Assembly (NCBI GenBank): GCA_964561845.1
Contig: CAZLRK010000001.1
Location: 14,119 to 78,118 of the forward strand
Direction of reading: 5' to 3'
DNA: 64,000 bases
DNA from: an uncultured Desulfobacterales bacterium
GTDB lineage: Bacteria; Desulfobacterota; Desulfobacteria; Desulfobacterales; JAUVVS01
The notes beneath the pieces were generated by a model that was given only the letters and a program-made list of their open reading frames with translations, searched no databases and had not been told where the DNA came from. Below are positions 7,234 through 35,365 of this stretch, piece by piece; within the stretch, counting starts at the first letter, position 1, and each line of letters opens with the position of its first letter. Made by a program: the position numbers and the translations under genes.

Positions 7234-7290
7234 CTTAATTCTCCTATTTTCTTTTTATATATTTAGATTGATAATTAAACATATTTAAAA

Positions 7291-8754: not shown

Positions 8755-8794
8755 GTCTCCTTTCTTGTTGGTTTAATAATTTCTATTCTGTGGA

Positions 8795-9376: not shown

Positions 9377-9419
9377 TTACTTTATTTTCTTTTAAATTAG
9401 CCTGTTATATCACAATTAT

Positions 9420-10802
9420 TTATAACAAAGAAAAATCGAGTCCGAGTTCCGTTAATTCCATTTTTATTTTTCTATAAAGTTCCAAATATTCACTTGTTGG
9501 TGTGACTCTCTCGATGTCATAAATCTCTTTGAATTTTTTTCCCAGTGGCGCATTGGGAATATCTTTTTCATATTTGGCCAAAATCTTTTTTATTATCTTA
9601 TTGGCCTCTTTGCGTGTCATGCCCATCCGGGCAACAATATGTCCGACTTCTGATCCAGTCTGAATTTCAAGATGTGAGATTCTTTCAGGATATTTATCTC
9701 TGGCGATTCCGGCTGAAACAAGGTTTCCACCTGATACTGTTGATGTCATCGCATGAGCTGCCAGCTCATAAAAGAGCATCTCCGTGCAGGGGCCGGCGGA
9801 AGCCATTGCAACCGATTGGTTGATGAGATGAGTATTTCTGGCAATTGCCTGGCAATACACACTGACGAGCCAGAGCATTTCCGAGCTCGTATTGCATACC
9901 TGGTGAATATCAATGGGAAAGGAAATATGGTAGTTGGCTCTGAAAGCGAGGAGTCCTAAGAAAAAGTGTGCAATCAGAACAATCAGGGTTCCTTCGGGTC
10001 CCCCGGCATATCCACCCATTAGTGGTCCATAGAGACCCGCAATGCCTGAACCGCTTTCAAGCTGAAAGGGTATCTTTCTCAGTCTTGCATAATCAATCTT
10101 TAATTCAGCAATTACTCCGTTTTGCGTTATATCATTTTTTAAAGCTCCAAATTGTTCACGTGCAGCGGCCAGAATGGCATCGGTACTCTCTGCGCATGAT
10201 GTCAGTGCATACAGGCCAAGACCGGGTTTTCCGACTAGTCTCGCGGCTTCACGCCTTTTCGATACATCCCAGATTGCCGCCGCTACTTCAATAGGGTGGC
10301 CTGATCTGATAGGAATTCCTCTAAATGTGTTTTGCAGGGAGACACCGCAAAAGGCATCTGCCAGAGGAACACCGGCTATTGCCCTGGTAACCGGCAAAAA
10401 TTGATCTTCCGGTACAGGAACTCCAAGACCCGATGCAACAAAAGAAGGATCCCTGGAATCCTCAACCTTCCTGGCCTCGGTGATCCTTTGATCCCTTCCG
10501 TCACCCCAAACATAGGAAGATGGGGCATTACTTAACGCGTCTTCAATCTCATCTCTGGTAAAACGGGCTATCCGCATGGTGTCTAGATTGTAAAAACCGA
10601 CCTGCTTGAACAATTCAAGAGCGGCTTCATAGGTTCTGTCTGCAAGGGCGTCATCGCTTGAAACGATTTCATTTTGATCAAAACGGATGTCATATTTTTT
10701 TATAAGATCAGACACATGCGTATATAGAAACATATCATAATCTGTCTCTTCCATACGTTCACCCTTGTCACTTCTTTCCATAACTTCCCAAAAATCGATC
10801 AT
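9420..10802 (-). CDS. MtmB-family (monomethylamine methyltransferase-like) protein, non-pyrrolysine homolog
   Basis: 460 aa. Segments AGPCTEM and the C-terminal FKEIYDIERVTPTSEYLELYRKIKMELTELGLDF closely recall archaeal MtmB. The ORF has no in-frame stop. Corrinoid-protein genes flank it. Confidence 0.65.
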   Translation of the reverse strand: MIDFWEVMERSDKGERMEETDYDMFLYTHVSDLIKKYDIRFDQNEIVSSDDALADRTYEAALELFKQVGFYNLDTMRIARFTRDEIEDALSNAPSSYVWGDGRDQRITEARKVEDSRDPSFVASGLGVPVPEDQFLPVTRAIAGVPLADAFCGVSLQNTFRGIPIRSGHPIEVAAAIWDVSKRREAARLVGKPGLGLYALTSCAESTDAILAAAREQFGALKNDITQNGVIAELKIDYARLRKIPFQLESGSGIAGLYGPLMGGYAGGPEGTLIVLIAHFFLGLLAFRANYHISFPIDIHQVCNTSSEMLWLVSVYCQAIARNTHLINQSVAMASAGPCTEMLFYELAAHAMTSTVSGGNLVSAGIARDKYPERISHLEIQTGSEVGHIVARMGMTRKEANKIIKKILAKYEKDIPNAPLGKKFKEIYDIERVTPTSEYLELYRKIKMELTELGLDFSLL

Positions 10803-10827
10803 GAGAAAATCCCTCCATACTCAAAGA

Positions 10828-11472
10828 TTATTTATTCATTATTCCTTTTGCTACTTGTACAGCCTCCACTGCATCTTTTGCATAGCCGTCGGATCCGATT
10901 TCATTTGCCCATTTTTCTGTCACCGGGGCGCCCCCTACAATGACCTTAAAATCATCTCTGATATCCATTTCGGACAACTCTTCAATCACTACCTGCATAA
11001 AGGTCATTGTCGTAGTCATAAGGGCGGAAAGTCCAATGATATCTGCATTTTTGTCCCTTGCCTCACTGATTATCCTATCTACTTTGACATCTTTTCCAAG
11101 GTCGATGATTTCAAAGCCGGAGGTTGACATGATCAATTTCAGAATATTTTTGCCTATATCGTGCATGTCACCCTGAACGGTTGCAAGTACAACTTTTCCC
11201 TTGTCTTGAACCTTCCCAAGATTTTTTGACGCAATGACAGGGTTGAGAATATCAACGCCTGCATTCATAGCTTTTGCAGCCAACATCATCTCAGGAAGAT
11301 AGAATTTGCCTGATTCGAAGTTCTGCCCGACAACCTCCATCCCCTTTGCAAATCCTTTTTGAATGGCCTCTAAAGGATCGATGTCCTCACGAATAGCCTG
11401 ATTGGCTAAATCGATACAGGCCGCCGTATCACGCTTTATGACCGCATTTGCCATTTCTTCCAAAATACTCAT
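10828..11472 (-). CDS. methyltransferase cognate corrinoid protein (B12-binding), second copy
   Basis: 214 aa with DxHxxG motif GDMHDIGKNIL and the same architecture as 6571..7233. It is the first gene of the minus-strand operon. Confidence 0.85.
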   Translation of the reverse strand: MSILEEMANAVIKRDTAACIDLANQAIREDIDPLEAIQKGFAKGMEVVGQNFESGKFYLPEMMLAAKAMNAGVDILNPVIASKNLGKVQDKGKVVLATVQGDMHDIGKNILKLIMSTSGFEIIDLGKDVKVDRIISEARDKNADIIGLSALMTTTMTFMQVVIEELSEMDIRDDFKVIVGGAPVTEKWANEIGSDGYAKDAVEAVQVAKGIMNK

Positions 11473-11830
11473 AGTTTATACCTCCGTTAATATTTCCGAT
11501 AGAGAAAGAATTTCATAAAATAACTTATACAGTCAGTAATAAATATTCAATATATTATATTAAATCCTATATATAAAACATTTATGAAATATATTAATAG
11601 TTGTCAAGCTTGATAATAGCTGACAACATCCAATTTATAATATATATTGGAATTATAGTCTAATTTACTATTAAAAATATAGAATATCTTTAAAAAGCTA
11701 CTAATTTTAAATATTATGGTTAAATATGAGTAGATTATTTCCATTATATCGAACTACATCTGCTCCAAAATTTTAACTTTTTGAAAATAAGCCGCTCCAA
11801 AGATCAATGAACAGGCAGGGAGTGTTTCTC

Positions 11831-11895
11831 TTAAGACACACTTGGCACGGGGGGGATTTTGGATTTGGTTCTAACTGACTGCTAACTTCTTAAAA
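11831..11895. repeat. family-C intergenic repeat module
   Basis: TTAAGACACACTTGGCACGGGGGGGATTTTGGATTTGGTTCTAACTGACTGCTAACTTC is the near reverse complement of 44696-44760. Confidence 0.6.
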
Positions 11896-11988
11896 TCTTA
11901 GAATATCGAATGTCGAACAAGGAACCGCAATTTAATCTATTTGTTTTCTTAAAAAAAGTGTTGCCATGTGCTATATGATTTTATACTA

Positions 11989-12004
11989 TTTTCGATATCG
12001 AAAA
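11989..12004. promoter_or_regulatory. perfect 16-bp palindrome TTTTCGATATCGAAAA, candidate operator upstream of the pyrE-like gene
   Basis: Perfect dyad 29 nt upstream of the 12033 start, just downstream of TTGCCA ... TATACT promoter-like hexamers. Confidence 0.3.
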
Positions 12005-12032
12005 CACTTAAGAAGTGAGAGGAGCATGAGCA

Positions 12033-12701
12033 ATGCCTTACAATCAGTATGACGAGATAAGAAACCTCATCTGGCAAGAAGAGAAAAAGTATCTTATGAA
12101 AAAGGTTGCTTTTGATCTGGTTCTAAATGATGCGCTCAAAATCGGCGATTATATCCTTTACTCCGGGAAGAAAAGTCCCTATTACGTGGATCTTCGACAA
12201 TCCATCTCAGATCCCATAACAATGGATTTGATAGCCAATTCTTTGGCTCGCATCATCGACAATGAAATCGGAAGAAACAAATTCGATAAAATTATGGGAG
12301 TTCCTACAGCCGGTGTCCCTTTCACAACCATTGTGTGTCAGAAGTTGGCCATACCTATGCTTTACTATCGCAAGGAAAGAAAGGAACACGGTGTTCGGAA
12401 AAAGATCGAAGGTAAGATGGAAATAAACGACCGCATCCTCATGATAGATGATCTCATCACCACCGGCAAGAGTGTTATTCAAGCTGCAGAAGCTGCCCGG
12501 GAACAGGGAGGGCTGGTTACCGAGCTGGTGGTGCTTTTGAACAGAGAGCAAGGGGGACGAGAGTTTATCTTATCCAACAATATCCGCCCACATGTTCTTT
12601 TTAATATTTCCGATGCCTTTGAGTGGCTACGTGAAGTCAATTTGCTAAATGAAGATGATTACAAAGTGATTATGGATTATATTAATGAAGAAAGAAGTTA
12701 G
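12033..12701 (+). CDS. pyrE: orotate phosphoribosyltransferase-like protein
   Basis: PRTase PRPP-binding motif ILMIDDLITTGKS, plus YSGKKSPYYVDLR and GVPTAGVPF, typical of type I OPRTases. RBS GAGAGGAG. An N-terminal extension of about 20 aa is possible. Confidence 0.65.
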   Translation: MPYNQYDEIRNLIWQEEKKYLMKKVAFDLVLNDALKIGDYILYSGKKSPYYVDLRQSISDPITMDLIANSLARIIDNEIGRNKFDKIMGVPTAGVPFTTIVCQKLAIPMLYYRKERKEHGVRKKIEGKMEINDRILMIDDLITTGKSVIQAAEAAREQGGLVTELVVLLNREQGGREFILSNNIRPHVLFNISDAFEWLREVNLLNEDDYKVIMDYINEERS

Positions 12702-12709
12702 TATAAATT

Positions 12710-14059
12710 CTATTTTAGCTTCTTCAGAATTCTGGTTTGTAAGAATTTTCCTTTTCCACTGATACCTTTTAGTTTCATATCCTCTACGATTATATCTCCC
12801 CGATGCATGACCAAAGTGGGGGCTCCAAGACACTCCAAGCCCTCATAAAGCGTATAACCTGCATTTGAATGCTGTGTATTTTGCGATATTGTATGCCTTA
12901 TGGCAGGATCGAATATCACGAGATCTGCATCGGATCCAGTCTGCAGAACGCCTTTTTGAGGATAGAGACCGAATATTTTTGCAGGCGTTTCACTCAACGC
13001 TCTGATGAGGGTGCAAAGATCAACCCGACCTTCATTAACGCCTTTTTGATAAGCGACGGCCAACATGGTTTCAGTCGACGGGGAGCCAAAAGGAGCATCG
13101 AAGAAATCGTCGTCTATCTTCTTGGCCTTCGGCGCATGGTCACTGGCAATCACATCTATGAGCCCTGTTTTAAGACCCTCCCATAGGGCCTGGTTGTCTT
13201 GAGGTGTCCGCAGCGGGGGGCCTATTTTTGCCAGCGGCCCTTTCTCCTGTAAGTTTTTATCCGTCAGGACGAGATATTGGGGGCAGGTCTCCGTATATAC
13301 GGTCTGGCCCTTATCCCTAGCCCATCGAATGGGCTCAAGCGCGCGACTCGCACTAATATGGACGATGTAAAGTGCACAGTTCATGGTCTCGGCAATGGAA
13401 ATCGCCCGAAAGATGGCATCGGTTTCGAGCGCTGCCGGTCGCATTTTTAAAAAAACATCTCTCTGGGGTTGATTGCGGTATTTATCTTCAAGATAATCAA
13501 TTGAAAGGCCGTCTTCTCCATGCACCATGGCCAGCCCATCCAACTCGGAAATGATATCCATCGCCTTGGACAAATAGTAGTCGTCGGTCATCCAGCCCAG
13601 TTTGGCATATGTCATGAACATTTTAAAAGAGGTCACACCCATGTCAAAGCATTTCGGGATATCCTGGATTTGATTCTGTGCATCGAACATGGCCCCATGG
13701 ATAGCGAAATCCGTGTAGGAGGTGGCTTTACCTTCATCGATGAATTGTCTGACTGTCTCCGCTAGTTCCATACCGGGCCTGGCATATGCATAGTGGATCA
13801 TCGTGGTGATACCACCGAAGGCCCCCAAGGCGGAGCAGTCTTGTATAGTATCGACATAGACGGGATGTGTGTGGACGTCGAGCAGGCCCGGAATAATGTA
13901 TTTTCCACTACCGTCGATGACCGCCCGGGCTTCATTTTCCGGCAGATCAGGGGCCATTTTGGCAATTCTGCCGTCTCTAATCGCAATGTCGGTTTTGCAG
14001 ATATTTTGCGGACCGACAATCAGCCCGCTTTTTATGAGTTGATCAAACCTGTTTTCCAT
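12710..14059 (-). CDS. cyclic amidohydrolase, D-hydantoinase/dihydropyrimidinase family
   Basis: 449 aa. Metal-binding DVHTHP, carboxylated-lysine context VTSFKMFMTY, VHGEDG, YIVHIS, ETCPQYL and IASDHAP match hydantoinase/dihydropyrimidinase better than type I dihydroorotase. Confidence 0.75.
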   Translation of the reverse strand: MENRFDQLIKSGLIVGPQNICKTDIAIRDGRIAKMAPDLPENEARAVIDGSGKYIIPGLLDVHTHPVYVDTIQDCSALGAFGGITTMIHYAYARPGMELAETVRQFIDEGKATSYTDFAIHGAMFDAQNQIQDIPKCFDMGVTSFKMFMTYAKLGWMTDDYYLSKAMDIISELDGLAMVHGEDGLSIDYLEDKYRNQPQRDVFLKMRPAALETDAIFRAISIAETMNCALYIVHISASRALEPIRWARDKGQTVYTETCPQYLVLTDKNLQEKGPLAKIGPPLRTPQDNQALWEGLKTGLIDVIASDHAPKAKKIDDDFFDAPFGSPSTETMLAVAYQKGVNEGRVDLCTLIRALSETPAKIFGLYPQKGVLQTGSDADLVIFDPAIRHTISQNTQHSNAGYTLYEGLECLGAPTLVMHRGDIIVEDMKLKGISGKGKFLQTRILKKLK

Positions 14060-15369: not shown

Positions 15370-16332
<963 letters not shown>

Positions 16333-25527: not shown

Positions 25528-25767
25528 ATGAATAAGGAAGCTTTAACAAAACATGAAATTTATAATAAGCTGTTTGGATTTACCGAACATGATTTAGATG
25601 CTATTGTCAATTTTATCGATTTTATGAGGCATAAAAAAAAGCTTGGAACAAAAAAGGTAATCAAACTTGAAGGTATTCTTAAGGGTCATGATATAGACTT
25701 TTCCGATCTGAAGAAGTTAAAACAGCAAACCTGGAAGCACGTTGACCAGGAGTTTGCCAATGGATAG
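25528..25767 (+). CDS. putative antitoxin of a PIN-toxin pair
   Basis: 79-aa ORF with RBS GAAGGAAGG. Its stop overlaps the ATG of the downstream PIN gene by 8 nt. Confidence 0.5.
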   Translation: MNKEALTKHEIYNKLFGFTEHDLDAIVNFIDFMRHKKKLGTKKVIKLEGILKGHDIDFSDLKKLKQQTWKHVDQEFANG

Positions 25768-26149
25768 TTTTGTAACCGACACTCAGGCCCTTGTAAAATT
25801 TATGCTGGGCAAAAAGGTAATCAATAAAAAATCCCATCAGGTTTTCCACTCCACCGATAAGGGAGATGCCACTATCATCAATCCTGCCATTGTTTTGATG
25901 GAGGTTCTCTATCTATTTGAAAAGAACAGGATCGATATCAGCCTGCTTCAAACCGAAGATCTTTTCAAGAGCCAAAATTATCAGTTTGAGCCGCTGAGCT
26001 TTGAGATTCTTAAAACCGCTTCTGAGATCGACGACATCCCCGAGTTGCATGACCGGCTTATTGCTGCAACCGCCAGATATCTTGACCTGCCAATTATCAC
26101 CAATGATCCCGTGATACGGAACTCCAAATTTGTTGAAGTTCTGGTGTAA
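25760..26149 (+). CDS. PIN-domain ribonuclease toxin (VapC-like)
   Basis: An N-terminal acidic residue context (MDSFVTDTQ) and C-terminal LHDRLIAATARYLDLPIITNDP are typical of PIN toxins. Confidence 0.7.
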   Translation: MDSFVTDTQALVKFMLGKKVINKKSHQVFHSTDKGDATIINPAIVLMEVLYLFEKNRIDISLLQTEDLFKSQNYQFEPLSFEILKTASEIDDIPELHDRLIAATARYLDLPIITNDPVIRNSKFVEVLV

Positions 26150-26216: not shown

Positions 26217-26245
26217 TTGACAGGTCAGCAATAATATGATATAAA
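26217..26245 (+). promoter_or_regulatory. sigma70-like promoter for DGR target 1 (TTGACA-17 nt-TATAAA)
   Basis: The hexamers were read directly. The same TTGACA/TATAAA pair, with an 18-nt spacer, precedes target 2 at 31536-31565. Confidence 0.4.
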
Positions 26246-26334
26246 CTGCCAATTTTAAATATAATCTGTAACATTTTAACTGTTTGAACAACAAAGCCAT
26301 CAAATTTGCCAACTGTATACATATGGAGGTAAAA

Positions 26335-28500
26335 GTGAATATCAGGCGAGTCAAAACCCCTGCAATTAACATGCTTATAATTAGCATATGCTTTTTACTC
26401 CTTTCTTTTTCCACCTACGCAGCTTCCAGGGGCATATATGTAAAAGCCAAAACATCTTCCGGCGGCATGAAGGAGATATCACTCTATTCCGGGTATCATG
26501 CATTGGTTGTGGGAGTTAGTGATTACGAAACATGGCCGGATCTGCCCAATGCCACAAAAGATGCTCATGAAATAGCACGCCTTTTAAAGAGGATGGGATT
26601 TGAGGTTAAAACGGTAACAAATCCCTCTTCACGTGAGCTTAAAAATGCTCTGAACGATTTGACATACAAATATGGCCTGGAATCAAACCGTGCTATTTTG
26701 TTTTATTATGCCGGACATGGGGAAACAGAAAAGCTGGCTGACGGTAATAAGTTGGGATACATCATTCCCAGAGACTGTCCCTTGCTAAAAGAAGATCCAC
26801 AGGGTTTTGTGAGCAAGGCCATCAGCATGAAGGATATGGAGGTCTATTCTTTGCGAATTCGGTCAAAGCATGTTTTGATGTTGTTTGATTCCTGTTTCTC
26901 CGGCTCACTTTTTTCATTGGTTAGAGCAGTGCCTGAGGATATAACTGAAAAGAGTACGCTTCCCGTGCGCCAGTACATTACAGCCGGTACCGAGGATGAA
27001 ACCGTACCTGATCGAAGTATGTTCAAACGATGTCTTATTTTAGGATTAGAAGGCGATGCAGATCTTACCAGAGACGGTTATATTACCGGAACGGAACTGG
27101 GATTGTATCTTTCAGACAAAGTTGTACAAAGTACCAGTCGTGCCCAGCACCCTCAGTATGGGAAAATTAGGACTCCGGAATTAGCAAGGGGTGATTTTGT
27201 GTTTCTCCTTGCTAGCTCCGGCGCTGTTGTGGAAGCTCCTGGCGAAGCAACCCTTTCAGTGGAATCGAATGTATCAGGCGCAAGAGTATTTGTGGATGGT
27301 CAAAAGGTGGGGACAACACAATTATCGGAAGTGGCAATTTCGGAAGGCGAACACAGAATACTGGTAGAGAAATCCGGATATGAGACATACAGGAAAACAA
27401 TCCGTGTTAAACAGGGCCGGTCCATATCGTTATACGTAGATCTTAGTATGAATACTCAACAGAATGGCAGACTTTACGTAGACACACAGCCTGCTGATGC
27501 CAATGTGAAAATACTTAACATCGGGCCTGCATTTTACCAGGGCATTGAGCTTGAAGCTGGCAGTTATCAAGTGGAAGTTTCAGCGGATGGCTATGAAGGT
27601 AAAAAATTGTGGATATCACTTGCCGCAGGAGAAGATAAGACTCTTGATATCAGTTTGAAACGAGAAACCGCATCCCGTGAAGGTAAAAAGATTACAAACA
27701 GCCTTGGGATGGAATTTTTATATATAAAACCGGGAACATTTATGATGGGAAGCCCTTCCAGTGAAAAAGGCAGGCAAAAAGATGAAAAGCAACACAGGGT
27801 AACCCTGAGCAAGGGATTTTATATACAGACCACGGAGGTGACTGTTGGGCAGTGGCGAGAGTTTATCCGGGATTCGGGATACAAGACAGAGGCAGAAACC
27901 GGTGGCGGCGCCTGGATCTGGACAGGCTCAAAATGGGAAAAGAAAAAGGGATATTATTGGGACAATCCGGGTTTTTCTCAGAGCGAAAACCATCCTGTGA
28001 CATGTGTGTCATGGAATGATGTCCGTAAATTTATAAACTGGATAAATCGTAAAGAGGGAAAATCTTATAAATTACCGACTGAAGCTGAATGGGAATATGC
28101 GTGCCGGGCAGGGAGTATGACTGCTTTTGCTAATGGTGACATATCTGAGCTCAAATGTGGTTATGATTCAAATCTGAATGCAATGGGGTGGTACTGCTAT
28201 AATGCAAATAAAAGGACACATCCGGTTGCCCAAAAGAATGCGAATGCCTGGGGGCTGTATGATATGCACGGCAATGTCTGGGAATGGTGTCAGGATAGTT
28301 GTGAATGGAAAAATGGTATAGTAACTGATACCTATCGTGACGGAATTGTTGATCCATTAAATACCAGCGGCTCTTACCGGGTGATCCGGGGCGGCAGCTG
28401 GGGCAATTACGCCAGGTACTGCCGGTCAGCGGATCGGAGCGGCTACACGCCCGGCGACAGGAGCAGCTTCCTGGGCTTCCGCCTCCTGAGGACACTTTAG
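26335..28500 (+). CDS. DGR target protein 1: signal peptide, caspase (peptidase C14) domain, two PEGA-like domains, FGE-sulfatase/C-type-lectin-fold domain with a C-terminal variable region
   Basis: Caspase His/Cys dyad contexts YYAGHGE and FDSCFSG. PEGA-like repeats (SGARVFVDGQKVG...). FGE-sulfatase motifs ([49 protein letters not shown]). GTG 26335 follows GGAGG; ATG 26323 and 26284 are alternatives. Confidence 0.85.
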   Translation: MNIRRVKTPAINMLIISICFLLLSFSTYAASRGIYVKAKTSSGGMKEISLYSGYHALVVGVSDYETWPDLPNATKDAHEIARLLKRMGFEVKTVTNPSSRELKNALNDLTYKYGLESNRAILFYYAGHGETEKLADGNKLGYIIPRDCPLLKEDPQGFVSKAISMKDMEVYSLRIRSKHVLMLFDSCFSGSLFSLVRAVPEDITEKSTLPVRQYITAGTEDETVPDRSMFKRCLILGLEGDADLTRDGYITGTELGLYLSDKVVQSTSRAQHPQYGKIRTPELARGDFVFLLASSGAVVEAPGEATLSVESNVSGARVFVDGQKVGTTQLSEVAISEGEHRILVEKSGYETYRKTIRVKQGRSISLYVDLSMNTQQNGRLYVDTQPADANVKILNIGPAFYQGIELEAGSYQVEVSADGYEGKKLWISLAAGEDKTLDISLKRETASREGKKITNSLGMEFLYIKPGTFMMGSPSSEKGRQKDEKQHRVTLSKGFYIQTTEVTVGQWREFIRDSGYKTEAETGGGAWIWTGSKWEKKKGYYWDNPGFSQSENHPVTCVSWNDVRKFINWINRKEGKSYKLPTEAEWEYACRAGSMTAFANGDISELKCGYDSNLNAMGWYCYNANKRTHPVAQKNANAWGLYDMHGNVWEWCQDSCEWKNGIVTDTYRDGIVDPLNTSGSYRVIRGGSWGNYARYCRSADRSGYTPGDRSSFLGFRLLRTL
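28369..28490 (+). repeat. DGR variable repeat VR1
   Basis: 122-nt alignment to the TR (30999-31120) with 17 mismatches by hand count. Every mismatch is at a TR adenine. Confidence 0.9.
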
Positions 28501-28550
28501 TTTTTGAGTTTTTACATTTTTACCTTTTGGACCGGGGTTTGGGGCGGGCT

Positions 28551-29011
28551 CCATAAGAGCTAATTTAACAATGAAGGCTTTTCATTCGTCATTCCGGCGA
28601 AAGCCGGAATCCAGGATTTGCCAGTACCCTGAACTGGGGCCTGCCCCGGACTTTGATCCGGGGGAGACGACAATGGATAAACAACCAGCGGTATATATTT
28701 TGGCAAGCAAACGAAATGGAACCCTCTATATAGGCGTGACATCAGATCTTGTTAAAAGGATCTGGCAACATAAAAACAATATGGTAGAAGGATTTACTAA
28801 GCGTTACGGTGTTCATCAGCTAATTTGGTATGAATTGCACGAAAATATGAAATCTGCCATTGAGAGGGAGAAACGAATGAAAGGATGGAAACGAAAGTGG
28901 AAACTGGAATTGATAGAGAGTATGAATGCCAGTTGGCAGGATTTGTATAATACGATTGTTTGACTGGATTCCGGCTTTCGCCGAAATGACTTGTTAAGTT
29001 AGCGCTTATGG
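28551..29011 (+). mobile_element. GIY-YIG gene cassette bounded by composite terminal inverted repeats
   Basis: Outer IR: CCATAAGAGCTAATTTAACAA (28551-28571) vs the reverse complement of 28991-29011, 19/21. Inner IR: GTCATTCCGGCGAAAGCCGGAATCCAG (28588-28614) vs the reverse complement of 28964-28990, 26/27. Each inner IR is itself a hairpin. Confidence 0.55.
28673..28963 (+). CDS. GIY-YIG nuclease-family protein (UPF0213-like)
   Basis: AVYILASKRNGTLYIGVTSDLVKRIWQHK...REKRMKGW is the classic small GIY-YIG protein. ATG 28673 follows GGGGAG; the upstream part of the ORF is repeat-derived. Confidence 0.85.
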   Translation: MDKQPAVYILASKRNGTLYIGVTSDLVKRIWQHKNNMVEGFTKRYGVHQLIWYELHENMKSAIEREKRMKGWKRKWKLELIESMNASWQDLYNTIV

Positions 29012-29097
29012 GGCGAAACCCCAACAGAAATTTATTAAAGAATAATGTTTTTTGCCTTAAAATGTCCTGTTTTTAATAATATAACCTTATCGTTTTT

Positions 29098-29152
29098 CCC
29101 ATATATGTGCCGCTTACAGTTGCATATATACGGTTTCAAGTATGCATATATG
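29098..29152 (+). promoter_or_regulatory. three phased CATATAT boxes immediately upstream of the HRDC-avd-RT operon
   Basis: CATATAT starts at 29100, 29123 and 29145 (spacing 23 and 22 nt). A homologous array lies at 33737-33790. Confidence 0.35.
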
Positions 29153-29154
29153 TG

Positions 29155-29667
29155 ATGCCTGTCCGAATATTCACCATACCATTTGATTCGAAAAAAGAGG
29201 TCTTCTCAGATGAAGACCTTTCACGATTTCTTCTGAACAAAAATGTAAAAAGGTTGCACCCTGAATTTTTTCAAATAAATGGCAAAGCATTCTGGACGGT
29301 TTTTATTGAGTATGAGGCCGTTGTAATTCCAGAAAAAAAGGATGCTGACTATCTTGATGAGGCACAAAGGCTGCTTATGAAACGTCTGAAAGAGTGGAGA
29401 AAAGAAAAGGCGGAAACAGTGGGGATACCGGTATTTATAATTGCAACCAATAAACAGCTTGTTGATGTTATTAAACGCGCGCCAGGGACCCTGGAAGCAC
29501 TGCGGGAAATAAACGGATTCGGCAAGAAAAAAATTGAACGGTACGGCGGTGAAATTGTTAAAATCATAACCGCCTTTTATGAAAAAAAGCCACTTCGTTT
29601 CCAAAAATCAAAAAAGTTGTCCGAAAAAAGAAGTAAAACAGATGATGCAAAAAACGAAAAGGGTTAA
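29155..29667 (+). CDS. HRDC-domain accessory protein of the DGR
   Basis: The C-terminal half (LKEWRKEKAETVGIPVFIIATNKQLVDVIKRAPGTLEALREINGFGKKKIERYG) is an HRDC fold signature. ATG 29155 is chosen; the ORF extends to 29107. Confidence 0.65.
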   Translation: MPVRIFTIPFDSKKEVFSDEDLSRFLLNKNVKRLHPEFFQINGKAFWTVFIEYEAVVIPEKKDADYLDEAQRLLMKRLKEWRKEKAETVGIPVFIIATNKQLVDVIKRAPGTLEALREINGFGKKKIERYGGEIVKIITAFYEKKPLRFQKSKKLSEKRSKTDDAKNEKG

Positions 29668-29670
29668 TAA

Positions 29671-30018
29671 ATGAGAGACGATTATCCATTATTTGTGCAT
29701 TGGTACAAAACCCTTGACTGGATATTGTCAACCATTGAAAATTTTCCGAAAAAAGCGAGATTTTCTCTGGCATCTCGACTTGCAAATGGCGCTCTGGATA
29801 CGATTGAGCTTATTATCGAGGCCATATATACCAAAAACCGTCTCCATATATTGAATAAAATAAACCTATATATGGAAAAGCAGCGTGTTTTGTTTCGCAT
29901 TGCTCATGACAGGCGATACATTTCAACAAGGCAGTATGAATATGTTTCAAAAGCAATTGATGAAGCAGGTAAAATGACAGGCGGATGGAGAAAGCAAACC
30001 CTTGAAAAGAATCAATAA
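29671..30018 (+). CDS. avd: Avd-like four-helix-bundle accessory variability determinant
   Basis: 115 aa, basic, with a helix-bundle pattern (YKTLDWILSTIENFPKKARFSLASRL...) typical of Avd / 23S-rRNA-IVS family proteins. It lies directly upstream of and overlaps the RT gene. Confidence 0.8.
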   Translation: MRDDYPLFVHWYKTLDWILSTIENFPKKARFSLASRLANGALDTIELIIEAIYTKNRLHILNKINLYMEKQRVLFRIAHDRRYISTRQYEYVSKAIDEAGKMTGGWRKQTLEKNQ

Positions 30019-30994
30019 TCTTTTTAACAGCATCACTTCATACGAAAATCTATTAATCGCTTCCCGTCTTGCGATGAAAGGAAGCGGCAAAACCGCTGCA
30101 ACTTGCAAGTATTTCTATCACTGGGAAACGGAAATTTTGCAACTTCAGACGGAATTGTTAAATGGGATTTATCGGCCTGGTTCATACCGCTATTTTATCA
30201 TTTATGATCCAAAAGAAAGAGTTATTGCTGTTGCCCCTTTTCGTGACCGGGTTGTCCATCACGCAGTGGTTCGAATCCTTACGCCGATTTATGAACGTGT
30301 ATTTATACATGATTCCTATGCCACAAGGCCTTGCAAGGGGACACATGCCGCTATTAAGCGTGCTCAAAAGTTTATTAGGCAGTGGCCCTGGTATCTTAAA
30401 GCAGATATTGAAAAATATTTTAACAATGTTGATCATGAAATTCTTCTGGGAATCATAGAGCGAAAGATAAAAGATAGGCAGCTACTTAAGCTGCTGGATA
30501 GAATCATCAGAAATACACCCACATCTGGCATAGGGATTCCCATTGGAAACCTTACCAGTCAATTCTTGGCAAATGTATATCTTGACCCTTTGGATCATAA
30601 AATAAAGGATCAAATAGGTGTTAAAGGGTATTTACGTTATATGGATGACTTTGTCTTGTTTGGATATTCAAAAAAGGAGCTGTTAGATTTAAAGTGCTCT
30701 GTTGACCACTTTTTGTCAGAACGATTGAGACTTTGCTTAAAATCCAATTCAACCTGGCTGAATCGATCAAGCCACGGTCTTAGTTTTTTGGGAATGAGAA
30801 TCTTCCCGAGGTTTATCAGAGTGAAGCCGGAAAACCGAAAGAGAAGCTTAAAACGAATGTCTAATATTGTTAAAAAATGGGAAATTGGCGAGATTGAAGA
30901 AGAGCGAATGGCCAAGAGCCTGGCCAGTATTGTTGGGCATCTTCGTTATTTCTGCCCCAAGGTAAATATAGCTTTGGAAGCAGGCGCCGAATAA
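30002..30994 (+). CDS. DGR reverse transcriptase
   Basis: RT motifs include the catalytic YMDD ([10 protein letters not shown]) and the DGR-characteristic IGNLTSQ motif. The TTG start overlaps avd. The TR begins 5 nt after its stop. Confidence 0.9.
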
Positions 30995-30998
30995 AGGT

Positions 30999-31120
30999 GG
31001 CTCTAACCGGGTGATCCGGGGCGGCAGCTGGAACAATAACGCCAGAAACTGCCGGTCAGCAAATCGGAACAACAACACGCCCGGCAACAGGAACAACAAC
31101 CTGGGCTTCCGCCTCCTGAG
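30999..31120 (+). repeat. DGR template repeat (TR)
   Basis: Adenine-rich (AAC-codon-rich) 122-nt copy of the VR1/VR2 sequences. It differs from them only at its own adenines. I counted about 35 A in the TR by hand. Confidence 0.9.
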
Positions 31121-31339
31121 CACGGGGGAACAGCAGAATCCGGTTTCGTTACGGCGCCCCAGACCGTCTACACCCCTGTCCAGGCGCTGCTTCCTGCATC
31201 CTGCCTCTATATACTTATATATGGTGCAGGATCGAAAAGAACGGATCGGTCCCGGGATTAGTAGATAAATAAATGGATAAACTTTTTTATCGAATATGCC
31301 GGGACGATCAATTATTAATCCGGCGACTAAATAGGCAAC

Positions 31340-31407
31340 AACGTCATACCGGACTTGATCCGGCATCCAGTGTCTTTCTGGATTCCCGCGTTCGCGGGAA
31401 TGAGCAC
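31340..31407 (-). repeat. solo copy of the double-hairpin leader repeat that precedes the GIY-YIG gene
   Basis: The reverse complement (TCATTCCCGCGAACGCGGGAATCCAG...GCCGGATCAAGTCCGG) parallels 28588-28665 (TCATTCCGGCGAAAGCCGGAATCCAG...CCCCGGACTTTGATCCGGGG). No ORF is attached. Confidence 0.45.
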
Positions 31408-31535
31408 CCTCGGGTATTTAACCGCCGGAGTAATAAGAATACGTTAATTTGATTAATGACTTTAATTAAAATATATAATTCATGACGTTGGAAAAAATCT
31501 CCTTAAATCCCTTTAAAAAAGGGAGACTTTTGATT

Positions 31536-31565
31536 TTGACATTTGCAAACAAAATCTGCTATAAA
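31536..31565 (+). promoter_or_regulatory. sigma70-like promoter for DGR target 2 (TTGACA-18 nt-TATAAA)
   Basis: The hexamers were read directly, about 105 nt upstream of ATG 31670. Confidence 0.35.
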
Positions 31566-31669
31566 GGCTGTTGCTTAGCACAAATTATTAAAATTACACC
31601 CACAACATAATGAGAATAATATTTAATTTATGGAATGTATAATTACATAAAAAGATAAAAGGTGCTGAT

Positions 31670-33442
31670 ATGATTAAACGTATTATTTTCAGGTTATCTA
31701 CCATAGCATTTTTATTTGTTTTATTAATTCCGAGTATTTCTCTCTCCAGCCAGGATCGCCGGATTGCCCTTGTTATCGGTAATGGTGCCTACAAATTTTC
31801 TCCTCTCAGGAATCCGGTGAATGATGCCAACGATATGGCTGTTGCTCTGGAAAAGTGCAAATTCAATGTAGTGAAAATAACCGATGCCAATAGAGGTGAA
31901 ATGCGCAAAGCAATCAGGAAATTTGGGAATAAACTTATGAGAGGGGGAATAGGTTTGTTCTATTATGCGGGCCACGGGATTCAAGTTAATGGTGAAAATT
32001 ATCTGGTTCCTGTTGGGGCTGAAGTTTTCGCTGAAGATGAGGTTGAGGATGAGTGTCTGAAGGTATCATCTGTATTAAGAAAAATGGAAACAGCAAATAA
32101 CAGCCTTAACATAATAATACTTGACGCCTGCAGAGATAATCCTTTTGGGCGTAGTTTCAGGTCCGGTAAGAGTGGTTTAGCAAAAATGGATGCCCCGACC
32201 GGCTCGATTCTGGCCTATGCCACAGCCCCTGGATCAGTTGCCGCTGATGGTACAGATAGAAATGGCCTGTATACGTCCAAGCTTTTAAAGCATATGACGA
32301 CACAGGGGATAACAATAGAAAATTTATTCAAGCGGGTACGAGTTGATGTAATGAATGCTTCAGGCAAAAGACAGGTTCCCTGGGAATCATCGTCTCTTGC
32401 GGGAAATTTCTATTTCTATTCAAAAAGAGGAATTACAATTGCGGAAAGTACAGCATTAAAATCGCAACCGGTTAAAGAGACGCCAGAGATTGAGGAAAAA
32501 ACCAAAGATGAGCTTGAACTTGCACTTTTAAAAATAAAAAAGTTGAAAGAAGCACAGCAAAAGGAAAAAGAGGCAAAGGGACGAAAGTTTAAAAATCTTC
32601 TTGCTGATTTGAAAAAATACCAAACTATTGAGAAATCAGATTTGGATGATGAAACAAAATATTCTGCCTGGAAGGCAATGAAAAGAAAATATCCTAAATG
32701 GAGTTCAGGTATAGGATCAGGCGATTCTACGGGCATGGTATATCGTGCACTTGAAGAAGACAATGATGGTACGTATGCAGAAATAGCCAAGGCCTCGGGT
32801 TTTGAGTTGTCAAAGACAAATTCAATTGGGATGGAGTTTGTTTATATAAAACCAGGTAGCTTCATGATGGGAAGCCCTTCCAATGAATCCGGGAGGGATG
32901 ATGACGAGGTGCAACACCGCGTGTCCATAACAAAGAGTTTTTACATACAAACAACGGAGGTGACCCAAGGGCAGTGGAAAGCGGTAATGGGCAGCAATCC
33001 ATCTCATTTTAAAAATTGTGGTGATGACTGTCCTGTGGAAAATGTTTCCTGGAATGATGTTAAAGAATTTATTCACAAGCTGAACCAGCGGGAAGGCAGC
33101 GGTACTTACAGGCTGCCTTCAGAGGCCGAATGGGAATATGCTGCCAGGGCAGGAACGGATACGCCTTTTTCCTTTGGTCGATGTTTATCCACTGATCAGG
33201 CCAATTATCATGGCAATTATCCATTATCAGGATGCGCTAAAGGAAAGTATAGGAATAGTACGATCCGTGTAGCCAGTTTTTCTCCCAACGCCTGGGGCTT
33301 GTATGATATGCATGGTAATGTCTATGAGTGGTGCCAGGACTGGTATGCAAAGTATTATTCCAGTTCAGCAACCGATCCCACCGGCCCATCCAGCGGCTCT
33401 TACCGGGTGATCCGGGGCGGCAGCTGGTACAATTACGCCTGA
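31670..33442 (+). CDS. DGR target protein 2: signal peptide, caspase domain, coiled-coil linker, FGE-sulfatase/CLec domain. It is truncated by a TGA inside its variable repeat.
   Basis: Caspase dyad contexts YYAGHGI and LDACRDN. FGE motifs ([39 protein letters not shown]). After TGA 33440-33442 the same frame continues for 27 codons (YCRSAVRNFFTPGDRSSFLGFRLLRTL) to TAG 33524-33526, matching the C-terminus of target 1. Confidence 0.85.
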   Translation: MIKRIIFRLSTIAFLFVLLIPSISLSSQDRRIALVIGNGAYKFSPLRNPVNDANDMAVALEKCKFNVVKITDANRGEMRKAIRKFGNKLMRGGIGLFYYAGHGIQVNGENYLVPVGAEVFAEDEVEDECLKVSSVLRKMETANNSLNIIILDACRDNPFGRSFRSGKSGLAKMDAPTGSILAYATAPGSVAADGTDRNGLYTSKLLKHMTTQGITIENLFKRVRVDVMNASGKRQVPWESSSLAGNFYFYSKRGITIAESTALKSQPVKETPEIEEKTKDELELALLKIKKLKEAQQKEKEAKGRKFKNLLADLKKYQTIEKSDLDDETKYSAWKAMKRKYPKWSSGIGSGDSTGMVYRALEEDNDGTYAEIAKASGFELSKTNSIGMEFVYIKPGSFMMGSPSNESGRDDDEVQHRVSITKSFYIQTTEVTQGQWKAVMGSNPSHFKNCGDDCPVENVSWNDVKEFIHKLNQREGSGTYRLPSEAEWEYAARAGTDTPFSFGRCLSTDQANYHGNYPLSGCAKGKYRNSTIRVASFSPNAWGLYDMHGNVYEWCQDWYAKYYSSSATDPTGPSSGSYRVIRGGSWYNYA

Positions 33443-33516
33443 TACTGCCGGTCAGCAGTTCGGAACTTCTTCACGCCCGGCGACAGGAGCAGCTTCCTGG
33501 GCTTCCGCCTCCTGAG
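33395..33516 (+). repeat. DGR variable repeat VR2
   Basis: 122-nt alignment to the TR with 16 mismatches by hand count, all at TR adenines. The following 57 nt (to 33573) are identical to the sequence after VR1. Confidence 0.9.
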
Positions 33517-33736
33517 GACACTTTAGTTTTTGAGTTTTTACATTTTTACCTTTTGGACCGGGGTTTGGGGCGGCTTCCGGCCCGGAGGGCTCTACCACGG
33601 CGGGAGCCCCAACGGAAATTATTTAAAAGTCAATTAAAATATTGATAAATTTACTTGTAAATATGCTTTTTTAACTAAAGTTGGTGATATTTGATAAAAA
33701 TATACCCATTTTAATAAATATTTTTTACTCATCCAC

Positions 33737-33790
33737 CCCATATATGTGCAGTTCTACTCGCATATATGCGATAATATATATGCATATATA
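33737..33790 (+). promoter_or_regulatory. second array of three phased CATATAT boxes
   Basis: CATATAT starts at 33739, 33761 and 33783 (spacing 22 and 22 nt). The first 13 nt (CCCATATATGTGC) are identical to 29098-29110. The array lies about 100 nt upstream of gene 33890. Confidence 0.35.
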
Positions 33791-33889
33791 CTATTTCAGT
33801 TTTAATCATTTTGCCCTAAATTATTTTGCCTTACAAGCCGGAGGCCAAAAAATTAATTATAAAACGCTTCAGCATGGAGGTTTTTCGTT

Positions 33890-34663
33890 ATGAGATTTAA
33901 AATTTTTATTTTAATAGTGCTAATGCTATCCGTACCTTTATCCTATGGTCAGGATAATAATGTGTTTGAAAAAGCGGATGATATGTTTGAAGAAATGGAC
34001 TATCAAAATCTTACTTTAAGATTTTTCAATGCTGTTAATGGAAATGGAATACCAGGAGCTGAGGTTGAAATAGAAGGAATAGGCGCAGGCGAAACCGATG
34101 ATGAGGGTAAGCTTTTGTTTCCTGTCCCTGAAGACGGAATTTACGATGTATATTTTAGAAAAAAGGGTTATATTGACTCGGATTTCAAGATAAAAATTAT
34201 GGTCGGCACAATATTTTTCAACAGGTTTTCAGTATCACCAGAGATAGATCTAAAGTATGTCAGGATAGTTCTTGATTGGGATAGAAGACCTTCAGATCTT
34301 GATGCTCACCTTGTAAAGGAAGGGGGTTATCATATATCATATAGAAACATGCATACAGTATCAGATGGAAGCGCTAAACTTGACAGGGACGATATGGATG
34401 GCTTTGGGCCGGAGACAATTACCATAAAAAGAGTGGACATAAACTCAAATTACAGATTCTTTGTCCATGATTATTCAAATCAGTCAAACCGTTTAAATCT
34501 GCAACTTTCAAAATCAAAGGCCTGCATTAAAGTTTACGGCGACGGCAAACTTCTCCAGTTGTTTAATGTTCCGCAGAATGAAAGAGGCATAGTCTGGGAA
34601 GTATTCCGCCTGGAAAAGGGCAGGATTGTTGAAGTCAATAGAATATCAAAAAAAATGATGTAG
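33890..34663 (+). CDS. secreted hypothetical protein (signal peptide; beta-rich)
   Basis: 257 aa. N-terminal signal-like MRFKIFILIVLMLSVPLSYGQ and RBS GGAGG. The C-terminal half (LDWDRRPSDLDAHL...DDMDGFGPETI) is reminiscent of a YfaP/DUF2135-type domain (uncertain). Confidence 0.55.
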   Translation: MRFKIFILIVLMLSVPLSYGQDNNVFEKADDMFEEMDYQNLTLRFFNAVNGNGIPGAEVEIEGIGAGETDDEGKLLFPVPEDGIYDVYFRKKGYIDSDFKIKIMVGTIFFNRFSVSPEIDLKYVRIVLDWDRRPSDLDAHLVKEGGYHISYRNMHTVSDGSAKLDRDDMDGFGPETITIKRVDINSNYRFFVHDYSNQSNRLNLQLSKSKACIKVYGDGKLLQLFNVPQNERGIVWEVFRLEKGRIVEVNRISKKMM

Positions 34664-34787: not shown

Positions 34788-34994
34788 ATGCAAATTGTAA
34801 CAGTATCGCCAAAATATCAAGTAGTAATACCAAAAAAGGTTAGAGATGTATTGCATCTTCGGCCCGGACAAAAAATGCAGGTTGTAGAATATGATGGACG
34901 GATCGAGCTTATCCCGGAGCGAGATATTAAAGAACTTCGCGGATTCCTAAAAGGTATAAACACAGAGTTCGAACGCGAGGAAGATAGAACATGA
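34788..34994 (+). CDS. AbrB/MazE/SpoVT-family antitoxin (VapB-like)
   Basis: 68 aa. MQIVTVSPKYQVVIPKKVRDVLHLRPGQKM is a swapped-hairpin AbrB-type DNA-binding motif. It overlaps the PIN gene by 4 nt (ATGA). Confidence 0.8.
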   Translation: MQIVTVSPKYQVVIPKKVRDVLHLRPGQKMQVVEYDGRIELIPERDIKELRGFLKGINTEFEREEDRT

Positions 34995-35365
34995 ATATTG
35001 TCGATTCTTCCGGTTGGCTTGCTTATTTTGCGGATGAGCCGAATGCTAAAAACTTTATAACCCCTTTAAATGATACGGCTTCACTTATTATTCCATCTGT
35101 AACGATATATGAGGTTTTCAAGGTAGTTCTTCGAGAGTCAAGTGAGAATAATGCGTTACAAGCAGCCGGTGCTATGCATAAAGGAACGGTTGTGGATCTA
35201 ACAGCTTCGTTGGCGATTGCTGCCTCAAAAATAAGTTTGGAGTATAATCCTCCAATGGCTGACAGTTTTATTCTCGCAACAGCAAAGGAATTCGATGCCA
35301 CCATTTGGATTCAAGATGCAGATTTTAAAAATATAGGCGGGGTAAAGTATTTCGCCAAGAAATAA
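34991..35365 (+). CDS. PIN-domain toxin (VapC-like)
   Basis: 124 aa. It has an N-terminal IVDSSGW acidic site and C-terminal ADSFILATAKEFDATIWIQDADF. Confidence 0.8.
   Translation: MNIVDSSGWLAYFADEPNAKNFITPLNDTASLIIPSVTIYEVFKVVLRESSENNALQAAGAMHKGTVVDLTASLAIAASKISLEYNPPMADSFILATAKEFDATIWIQDADFKNIGGVKYFAKK

Follow-up and report, generated by a model that had tools for sequence, protein, structure and literature searches.

The closest described counterparts of the element considered here are found in Treponema denticola and in the Bordetella phage BPP-1. Both are diversity-generating retroelements (DGRs), in which a reverse transcriptase (RT) rewrites the variable repeat (VR) of a target gene from a template repeat (TR) by adenine-specific mutagenesis. 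The DNA analyzed here, in the following called the window, is a 64-kb stretch from an uncultured Desulfobacterales bacterium, which carries a cassette of this kind together with both of its target genes within 26.2-33.7 kb, with all cassette genes on the plus strand. The locus is best explained as a currently active chromosomal DGR of the HRDC+Avd type that rewrites two probably exported caspase-lectin proteins, and we hold this explanation with high confidence. A preliminary description of the same DNA had proposed a complete HRDC-Avd-RT-TR element acting on two caspase/lectin genes, and this proposal is supported by the repeats, the domain scores, the fold, and independent assemblies. The location of the DGR is chromosomal, and both its machinery and the general architecture of its targets are already known.

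The DGR of T. denticola with its target TvpA (PMC4891356, PMC5758913) shares with the window an HRDC gene, a lectin target of the formylglycine-generating enzyme (FGE) type with a C-terminal VR, a chromosomal cassette, and an exported target. In contrast to this DGR, the cassette of the window has an additional Avd and two flanking targets, and these targets differ from TvpA by an N-terminal caspase domain, by PEGA domains in target 1, and by a predicted Sec-type instead of a lipoprotein signal. Cassettes with HRDC have been described as 'Architecture C', to which 14 of the 372 DGRs of one survey belong, about half of them also with Avd. According to the same survey, more than one target is present in about 15% of the surveyed DGRs, and two classes of FGE-type targets, b4 and b5, have protease-related domains (PMC5758913). 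The DGR of phage BPP-1, consisting of Mtd, bRT, Avd, and TR, resembles the element in the window with respect to adenine-specific mutagenesis, the presence of Avd, the GC-rich invariant end of the VR, and a structured RNA 3' of the TR. However, the element in the window is not located on a phage, its order is HRDC-avd-RT-TR instead of mtd-avd-TR-brt, its initiation of mutagenic homing (IMH) sequence and the corresponding IMH* are identical, and its targets are cellular protease-lectin fusions instead of a tail-fibre protein.

Caspase-like and FGE-type domains have been reported in other contexts as well. Cyanobacterial DGR variable proteins (Vallota-Eastman et al. 2020, PMC7517822) also consist of an N-terminal orthocaspase-like domain and a diversified lectin domain and also occur in paralogous copies. 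They belong to another phylum, however, and are mostly predicted to be cytosolic, whereas the targets in the window have predicted signal peptides and, in the case of target 1, PEGA domains; HRDC, which is present in the window cassette, is unmentioned in that study. The same domain combination has been found in bacterial metacaspases (Asplund-Samuelsson et al. 2012, PMC3501461), for which FGE-sulfatase is the fifth most common partner domain (33 proteins). That survey read the FGE domain as an enzyme and made no link to DGRs, whereas the domain in the window appears to be a hypervariable binding module. Finally, DGR-diversified lectin (FGS) sensors and caspase-like or TIR effectors are part of conflict systems in multicellular bacteria (Kaur et al. 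2020, PMC7159879; Dore et al. 2024, PMC10907252), and close relatives of the RT in the window are encoded in a multicellular magnetotactic bacterium. In contrast to these systems, no MoxR, vWA, STAND, or adaptor-domain gene is found among the annotated open reading frames (ORFs) of the window, sensor and protease reside on one predicted-exported polypeptide, and nothing shows that the host is multicellular. The novelty that the preliminary description had considered for the target architecture was overstated, as metacaspase-FGE fusions (PMC3501461), DGR targets with an orthocaspase (PMC7517822), and HRDC-type DGRs (PMC5758913) had already been described in silico; an experimental characterization of caspase-lectin proteins was not found in the literature searched.

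The repeats of the window were established by computed alignment and ungapped comparison with the TR as reference. This confirmed the coordinates and the 122-nt length that had been given for TR, VR1, and VR2 (Table 1) and reproduced the hand counts of 17 mismatches for VR1 and 16 for VR2; none of the mismatches among these repeats is located at a non-adenine position of the TR. The TR begins 5 nt beyond the stop codon of the RT gene (30994 and 30999), as had been stated before. The invariant cores of the repeats occur exactly three times in 64 kb, while no occurrence is expected from shuffles. In VR1, the last A-derived change is located at 28474; the remainder of the repeat (28475-28490) is an IMH-like end, rich in GC and invariant, which the TR shares without any difference. 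This GC-rich 3' end, CTGGGCTTCCGCCTCCTGAG, is identical in TR, VR1, and VR2. Identical IMH/IMH* pairs occur in other DGRs as well, and only 34% of DGRs have the inverted repeat (PMC5758913). Beyond the GC-rich end, the VRs continue with GAC and an array of T-tracts, whereas the TR continues with CAC and GGGG. The VRs encode the last 40-44 codons of the FGE-sulfatase domains of their genes. Adenines are present in 20 codons of the TR, by which about 1.9e18 peptide variants are possible, and the only stop-prone codon among them is AGA at 31044-31046.

The same strain is represented by 12 other contigs that encode the exact RT protein and originate from independent metagenome assemblies (ENA, Logan, JGI), among them L001, L002, L003, L019, L020, L021, and L022. 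The samples behind these assemblies may originate from the Cariaco Basin. In about 72 kb of compared sequence, these assemblies show 177 differences from the window, 174 of which are located inside the two 122-nt VRs and only three elsewhere; all but one of the 174 fall on TR adenines. Variation affects 34 of the 35 adenines of the TR versus 1 of its 87 other sites (Fisher p = 7e-28). When 12 distinct VR alleles are compared with the TR, 208 of 209 changes are located at adenines (A>T 115, A>G 69, A>C 24, non-A 1), a spectrum that agrees with the preferred misincorporation of dATP by bRT (PMC7826257). VR1 occurs as eight different alleles in eight assemblies and VR2 as four in seven. The VR2 of L003 differs from that of the window by a partial, 3'-anchored replacement, which fits the known mechanism. 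Many contigs end exactly at the borders of a VR or the TR, as is expected because hypervariable repeats break assembly graphs. A search for A-site-only heterogeneity, which the preliminary description had suggested for sequencing reads, was thus positive with independent assemblies, and it indirectly reveals ongoing mutagenic retrohoming.

Table 1. Features of the DGR locus; positions refer to the window.
Feature	Position	Strand	Remarks
Target gene 1	26323-28500	+	725 aa from ATG 26323; upstream TTG 26284 also possible
Target 1, caspase domain	26497-27207	+	His132 in AGHGE (26710-26724), Cys191 in DSCFSG (26887-26904)
Target 1, PEGA x2	27247-27672	+	Pfam, 84 bits
Target 1, FGE/C-type-lectin domain	27712-28497	+	FGE-sulfatase, 191 bits
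VR1	28369-28490	+	3' end of target 1; 17/17 mismatches at TR adenines
T-tract array	28501-28528	+	TTTTTGAGTTTTTACATTTTTACCTTTT; directly after the stop codon of target 1
GIY-YIG ORF	28571-28963	+	Pfam GIY-YIG; between target 1 and HRDC gene
HRDC accessory gene	29107-29667	+	186 aa from GTG; start at 29155 in other gene callers; Pfam HRDC, 71 bits
Avd	29671-30018	+	115 aa; NCBIfam NF033474 'DGR protein Avd', 101.4 bits (cutoff 80); Pfam bAvd, 67.5 bits
DGR RT	30002-30994	+	330 aa; RVT_1 (Pfam)
TR	30999-31120	+	122 nt; 35 adenines, mostly in AAC/AAT codons; identical in all 12 other assemblies
Conserved structured RNA	31121-31310	+	about 190 nt, 3' of TR
Target gene 2	31670-33526	+	full frame 617 aa, TAG 33524-33526; ORF in the window 31670-33442, 590 aa
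Target 2, caspase domain	31757-32413	+	His in AGHGI (31967-31981), Cys in DACRD (32123-32137); Peptidase_C14, 142 bits
Target 2, FGE/lectin domain	32834-33523	+	FGE-sulfatase, 151 bits; charged linker between caspase and lectin domains
VR2	33395-33516	+	3' end of target 2; 16/16 mismatches at TR adenines
T-tract array, identical copy	33527-33554	+	directly after the stop codon of target 2
GC-rich imperfect inverted repeat	33558-33615	+	downstream of VR2; from DNA folds of VR flanks (window, L008, L012)

The machinery consists of HRDC, Avd, and RT. As had been noted before, avd overlaps the RT gene, namely by 17 nt, and the HRDC gene is located upstream; Avd scores above the curated cutoff and HRDC is recognized with 71 bits. 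The motifs YMDD and IGNLTSQ, also noted before, were located at residues 213-216 and 181-187 of the RT, respectively. In a comparison with solved structures, the RT matches 8ub7_A best (190 bits, end-to-end), followed by a group II RT with 106 bits and a retron RT with about 80 bits. The structure 8ub7_A comprises a 328-aa RT, which we take to be the bRT of the Bordetella phage; it has IGxLTSQ at the same residue numbers, and its Arg74 aligns with Arg73 of the RT in the window. DGR RTs have the motif [I/V/L]GxxxSQ instead of QGxxxSP, and this signature motif as well as Arg74 have been shown to promote adenine mutagenesis (PMC7826257). By these scores and motifs, rather than by a formal phylogeny, the RT is assigned to the DGR class.

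Related cassettes and targets were compared on contigs L007, L008/L009, L010, L012, L036, L047, L057, L105, L106, and L107. The identity of their RTs to the RT in the window is 80% for L008/L009, 70% for L105, 69% for L106, 50% for L012, 49% for L036, and 40% for L057. L008/L009, L012, L036, and L106 retain the HRDC gene at an unchanged position, and L107 contains it too; HRDC is missing from L057, where up to six caspase-lectin genes are found. L036 has the same gene order as the window, and its contig ends before the TR. L012, a metagenome-assembled genome (MAG) of Spirochaetes with a TvpA-like target, agrees with the window in its gene order (target-HRDC-Avd-RT-TR) and in the T-tract array, and it serves as a proxy for the T. 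denticola clade. L105 is Candidatus Magnetomoraceae bacterium gMMP-1, a multicellular magnetotactic bacterium, in which the cassette is located at 7288-12831 and one TR serves both a caspase-PEGA-lectin protein and a TIR-lectin protein. In L012 and L107, the same cassette is found with lectin-only targets. VRs with changes at adenines only were verified on caspase-lectin genes of four other lineages (L008/L009, L106, L105, and L057).

Homologs of target 1 are numerous: of 8,000 candidates that were scored, 1,825 reach E <= 1e-10, and the caspase-PEGA-FGE architecture is shared by almost all of the best 120. In their sources, these homologs are labeled 'formylglycine-generating enzyme' or 'SUMF1/EgtB/PvdO family nonheme iron enzyme', and the enzyme label is probably wrong for the members that are targeted by DGRs. 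A scan of genome contigs with a two-sequence RT alignment, for which N-terminal peptides were chosen, yielded only seven distant DGRs. A scan of metagenomes with an alignment of the targets yielded mostly generic FGE domains, and caspase together with FGE was found at only 7 of 80 loci.

Both targets are probably Sec-exported caspase-type cysteine proteases joined to a TvpA-like C-type-lectin domain. The intact His/Cys dyad that had been noticed in both proteins was recovered as AGHG and DSC in target 1, whose caspase domain matches Peptidase_C14 of Pfam with 64 bits, and as AGHG and DAC in target 2; among 66 homologs of target 1, His132 is conserved in at least 90% and Cys191 in 100%. The signal peptides that had been assigned to both targets are predicted here as well. 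Both N-termini are signal-peptide-like (about aa 1-34 in target 1), with a basic stretch, a hydrophobic core, and an Ala-rich end, and no further transmembrane segment follows; an N-terminal hydrophobic segment is present in 64 of the 66 homologs. The call of export was made by a crude hydrophobicity check and not by a dedicated predictor. The view that the two genes are paralogous holds for the lectin domains, which share 49% identity, but not beyond them, as the caspase domains share 32% over 99 aa and PEGA is present in target 1 only.

The C-terminal FGE/C-type-lectin fold that had been proposed for the targets is upheld by sequence and by a predicted structure. Sequence matches of the target 1 lectin domain in the PDB are PvdO, TvpA, and FGE, and the caspase domain matches MALT1. 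The AlphaFold prediction for target 1 reached a mean pLDDT of 85.6 and a pTM of 0.44, the latter of which leaves the relative arrangement of the domains uncertain. In a Foldseek search with this model, target-normalised template-modelling (TM) scores were 0.82-0.85 for PvdO, about 0.72 for FGE, and 0.68 for TvpA, and the caspase domain of MALT1 was found as well. The peptide frame of the VR, RGGSW..A..C....R....PG.R....GFRL, aligns directly with the variable region of TvpA. In an alignment to human FGE, whose catalytic cysteines we take to be Cys336 and Cys341, the position of Cys341 is occupied by a conserved Cys, whereas the position of Cys336 corresponds to a DGR-randomised AAT codon of the TR, which encodes Asn in the window. 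The two catalytic cysteines that define an FGE/SUMF1 enzyme are accordingly not both found in the targets. Because one catalytic position is a randomised codon, the lectin domain is to be regarded as a binding module and not as an FGE enzyme.

Target 2 contains an in-frame TGA at 33440-33442 inside VR2, 27 codons ahead of the normal TAG, which was missing from the preliminary description. It results from the TR codon AGA by A>T at the first base and shortens the protein from 617 to 590 aa, by which the last strands of the lectin domain are lost. The TGA has turned target 2 off in the window. The same allele is present in L001 and L019; L003 shares its 5' half, in which the TGA lies, but not its 3' half. 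In L002, L020, and L021, target 2 is full length (called there as 618 aa), and the stop-prone codon reads AGA or TGG in the alleles of L002/L021 and L020. Since the TGA alleles share their 5' half, they appear to have a single origin. An adaptive 'phase variation' by the DGR via the AGA codon was considered and found to be weakly founded, as the TGA alleles have the 5' half in common and the matching TR codon of L008 is AGG, which cannot become a stop codon.

Because the GC-rich end is identical in the TR and the VRs, donor and recipient must be told apart by the flank downstream of it. This VR-specific flank has the order GAGGAC, T-tract array, and GC hairpin, and it probably marks the recipient. 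The motif of the array occurs nowhere else in the window. The array was found at 14 of 14 VRs or target 3' ends in seven lineages (the window with its two arrays, L008, L012, L036, L105, L106, and L107) and at 0 of 6 TRs, and it is absent from the homologs without DGR in L007 and L010. Unrelated FGE loci, 621 kb in total, contain 13 matches to a relaxed form of the motif, 4 of which lie within 60 nt of the end of an FGE gene, where about 0.06 were expected by estimate. In a scan of metagenome contigs, an exact match to the VR-specific flank was not found; this collection evidently does not contain the samples in question. In L057, a different tandem array, (CCCTTAA)n, with four G-tracts on the opposite strand, follows the VRs (1809-1840, 5968-6000, and 15526-15560). 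Possibly, VRs are generally followed by a periodic array whose sequence depends on the clade.

The GC-rich repeat 3' of VR2 is the counterpart of the one found behind the IMH in other DGRs. The equivalent hairpin of VR1, GGGGCGAAACCCC, is located at 29010-29022 and has been displaced by the insertion of a GIY-YIG cassette of about 460 bp (28548-29008). This cassette has 27-nt terminal inverted repeats (28588-28614 and 28964-28990), TGGGGCG is found at both junctions of the insert (28540-28546 and 29009-29015), and L008 is free of the insert. By its appearance, the cassette resembles a small mobile element. Taken alone, the VR1 flank does not fold into a significant DNA structure (z = 0.6), which is explained by the displacement of its hairpin. 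Even so, VR1 varies more than VR2, which suggests that the hairpin need not be adjacent to the VR. A solo third copy of the hairpin repeat at the end of the GIY-YIG element, CTGGATTCCCGCGTTCGCGGGAATGA, is located at 31371-31403 between the RNA associated with the TR and target 2, and it probably represents what is left of the end of this element or a REP-like copy of that end.

The region 3' of the TR is about 93% identical between the window and L008, although the RT proteins are only 80% identical. RNAalifold predicted 45 base pairs from six lineages, 19 of which have compensatory changes; 90.8% of the cells are paired versus 35-44% in slid controls, and none of 500 shuffles reaches this value. 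In two of the helices, the 3' end of the TR pairs with sequence downstream of it. This RNA resembles the spacer ('Sp') RNA of the Bordetella element. An antisense ORF of 172 aa (30848-31366, minus strand) overlaps the 3' end of the RT gene, the TR, and the conserved RNA and is in all likelihood not a real gene but a side effect of the GC-rich repeat. Scans of the window for promoters and terminators gave results no better than those for shuffles.

From these features, a sequence of events can be proposed. The HRDC-avd-RT operon would be transcribed together with the TR and the 3' RNA of about 190 nt. RT and Avd would then copy the TR RNA into cDNA with random bases opposite adenines, as established by DGR biochemistry, of which the outcome is seen here. 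The cDNA would replace the 122-nt VR of the two genes, anchored at the invariant GC-rich end and reaching a variable distance in the 5' direction. The T-tract array and the hairpin may mark the recipient VR, and the HRDC protein may assist at the DNA target. By this process, the ligand-binding face of the lectin domain would be rewritten, with about 1e18 possible variants.

Two other readings of the cassette differ from an active DGR. In the first, the RT would be that of a retron or of a group II intron, or else a defence RT (DRT), and only coincidence would have placed it near the repeats. NCBIfam has no model for DGR RTs, the best match there is a group II maturase model (155 bits at a cutoff of 300), and some sources label RT homologs as 'retron-type'. 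However, all scores for retron, group II, and DRT models stay below the curated cutoffs, the best match in PADLOC is a generic RT model and not a DRT model, the RT has no maturase or endonuclease domain, and Rfam has no match anywhere in the window, group II and retron RNAs included. The possibility raised earlier that the RT might be nearer to retron or group II RTs than to DGR RTs is contradicted by the scores against solved RTs given above, and owing to the 8ub7_A score and the DGR signature motif, with SQ in place of SP, these identities are rejected. With a curated Avd adjacent to the RT and the TR directly behind it, their probability is close to nil. The other reading, a relic DGR with old VR differences or VR variation caused by assembly or recombination between paralogous repeats, is very improbable. 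It could draw on the shared 3' substitutions of VR1 and VR2 in the window, on the breaking of assemblies at the repeats, and on the stop codon in target 2, but eight VR1 and four VR2 alleles are found among assemblies with no other difference over 6-10 kb, the allele changes relative to the TR are at adenines with a single exception, the machinery ORFs are all intact, and the TR is invariant. Recombination among VR1, VR2, and TR, moreover, cannot create new bases at adenine sites only.

Several observations nevertheless weigh against a currently active DGR with two exported caspase-lectin targets. The heterogeneity is one between consensus assemblies and not within a sample, and consensus VRs may be chimeric. 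Since the VR1 alleles of L019 and L022 differ only in their 5' part, such chimerism has to be reckoned with. In the window, VR1 and VR2 share identical 3' substitutions (G, G, G, TT; TR offsets 86-105), whereas other assemblies have different VR1 alleles, yet the same VR2 allele as the window; a chimeric consensus or assembly artefact, gene conversion, or one cDNA used twice could account for the shared pattern. The truncated allele of target 2 dominates several samples, so that target 2 could be dispensable. The structure of the 3' RNA was scored on the same alignment from which it was derived, the roles of HRDC and the T-tract array are proposals only, and export of the targets is supported by the hydrophobicity check only. 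Proteolysis by the targets is a prediction. Finally, the family members in L007 and L010 have no DGR within 10 kb, which indicates that the family exists independently of diversification.

For the function of the targets, three readings were weighed. The likeliest of them, though held only tentatively and as less than probable, is that the targets bind molecules with variable specificity in the periplasm or at the cell surface and couple this binding to proteolysis of the bound molecule or of a neighboring envelope protein; in this sense, each of them can be read as a 'receptor wired to a protease', as the preliminary description had put it. It is rather unlikely, but worth considering, that they are conflict or immune-like sensors, in which the lectin domain recognizes a molecule of an invader or of a foreign cell in the envelope and the caspase cleaves, for example, a DUF4384 anti-sigma factor, leading to a response by an extracytoplasmic function (ECF) sigma factor or to cell death. 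They would then be comparable to the DGR-diversified conflict systems of multicellular bacteria. This would agree with the ECF sigma and zf-HC2 anti-sigma genes that adjoin caspase-lectin DGR targets in L008/L009 and L057, with the DUF4384 domain in the anti-sigma factor of L057, and with the occurrence of separate DUF4384 proteins, one of them fused to a subtilase, close to family members in L007, L008/L009, L047, and L057 (ECF, anti-sigma, and DUF4384 genes at 7732-9277 and 17634-19130 in L008, 7815-11957 in L057, and 13261-16446 in L007). Further points in its favor are the TIR-lectin fusion as second target in the multicellular L105, the NACHT, WD40, ThiF, and UQ_con genes next to the cassette of L107, and the proposal of caspase effectors and DGR-diversified FGE-type sensors in conflict systems (PMC7159879, PMC10907252). 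However, this association of neighborhoods comes from a handful of loci, and the 64-kb window contains neither homologs of the ECF sigma, anti-sigma, and DUF4384 proteins of the relatives nor, among its annotated ORFs, a MoxR, vWA, STAND, TIR, or adaptor-domain gene; the described conflict systems are also mostly cytoplasmic, whereas these targets have predicted signal peptides.

To the same doubtful degree, the targets might be variable adhesins or surface binders of the TvpA/LdtA kind, in which the caspase serves only for autoprocessing, anchoring, or as a scaffold. TvpA is the closest DGR prototype by sequence, the targets in L012 and L107 consist of a lectin without caspase, and PEGA is typical of surface proteins and has been noted on DGR targets (supplement of PMC8144416). 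On the other hand, the His/Cys dyad is invariant or nearly so in the 66 homologs, and at least five RT lineages have caspase-lectin fusions among their DGR targets, a recurrence that speaks for a functional coupling of the protease. A still broader and quite speculative extension of variable binding coupled to proteolysis, to which only a small probability is assigned, is that exported caspase-lectin fusions with HRDC-type DGRs represent a widespread, unrecognised form of extracytoplasmic surveillance. The randomised tip of the lectin domain would capture foreign proteins or glycans, and the caspase would turn binding into proteolysis of the ligand or of a DUF4384/anti-sigma partner, which would release the ECF sigma factor. 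The stop-prone TR codon would switch receptors off and on, and the T-tract array, possibly read by the HRDC protein, would tell recipient from donor.

The genes of the window include HrpA, enzymes of the xanthine dehydrogenase family, and methyltransferases, and one ORF was read by sequence as a hybrid-cluster protein. The best named homologs of HrpA, at 60-63% identity, are from Desulfobacterales MAGs, and PMC12220078 cites one of the source samples as coming from a marine water column. On the minus strand, homologs of the methylamine methyltransferases MttB (7291-8754, 284 bits) and MtmB (9420-10802, 311 bits) are encoded close together, the latter by an uninterrupted ORF of 460 aa; MtmB of archaea has a pyrrolysine codon. 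Toxin-antitoxin pairs are located on both sides of the DGR. The left pair (25528-26149) consists of a small antitoxin-like ORF and a PIN toxin, and the right pair (34788-35365) of a MazE/AbrB-like and a PIN-like ORF. The cassettes of relatives are found in an unrelated context in L008 and beside integrases and a primase-helicase in L106. These differing contexts hint at mobility; a compositional island is not visible in the window. An ORF of 257 aa (33890-34663), which has a signal-peptide-like N-terminus and a faint match to CarboxypepD_reg, had been included in the range of the preliminary description, but no link to the DGR was found. It was dropped as a part of the element, as it is not conserved beside related DGRs and has no informative family match.

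The T-tract array, the displaced hairpin, the nonsense allele made by the DGR, and the exported protease-lectin family are the aspects worth following up. The T-tract array and the covarying 3' RNA bear on the question of how target and template are discriminated when the IMH sequences are identical. Other DGRs have by now been reconstituted in E. coli (PMC12875486; bioRxiv 10.64898/2026.07.21.739853). With at least 12 natural VR alleles in public data and two targets, the element is convenient for studying the dynamics of a DGR in a wild, uncultured anaerobe. The role of a protease that is fused to a hypervariable binder in the cell envelope could reveal a new mode of programmable recognition.

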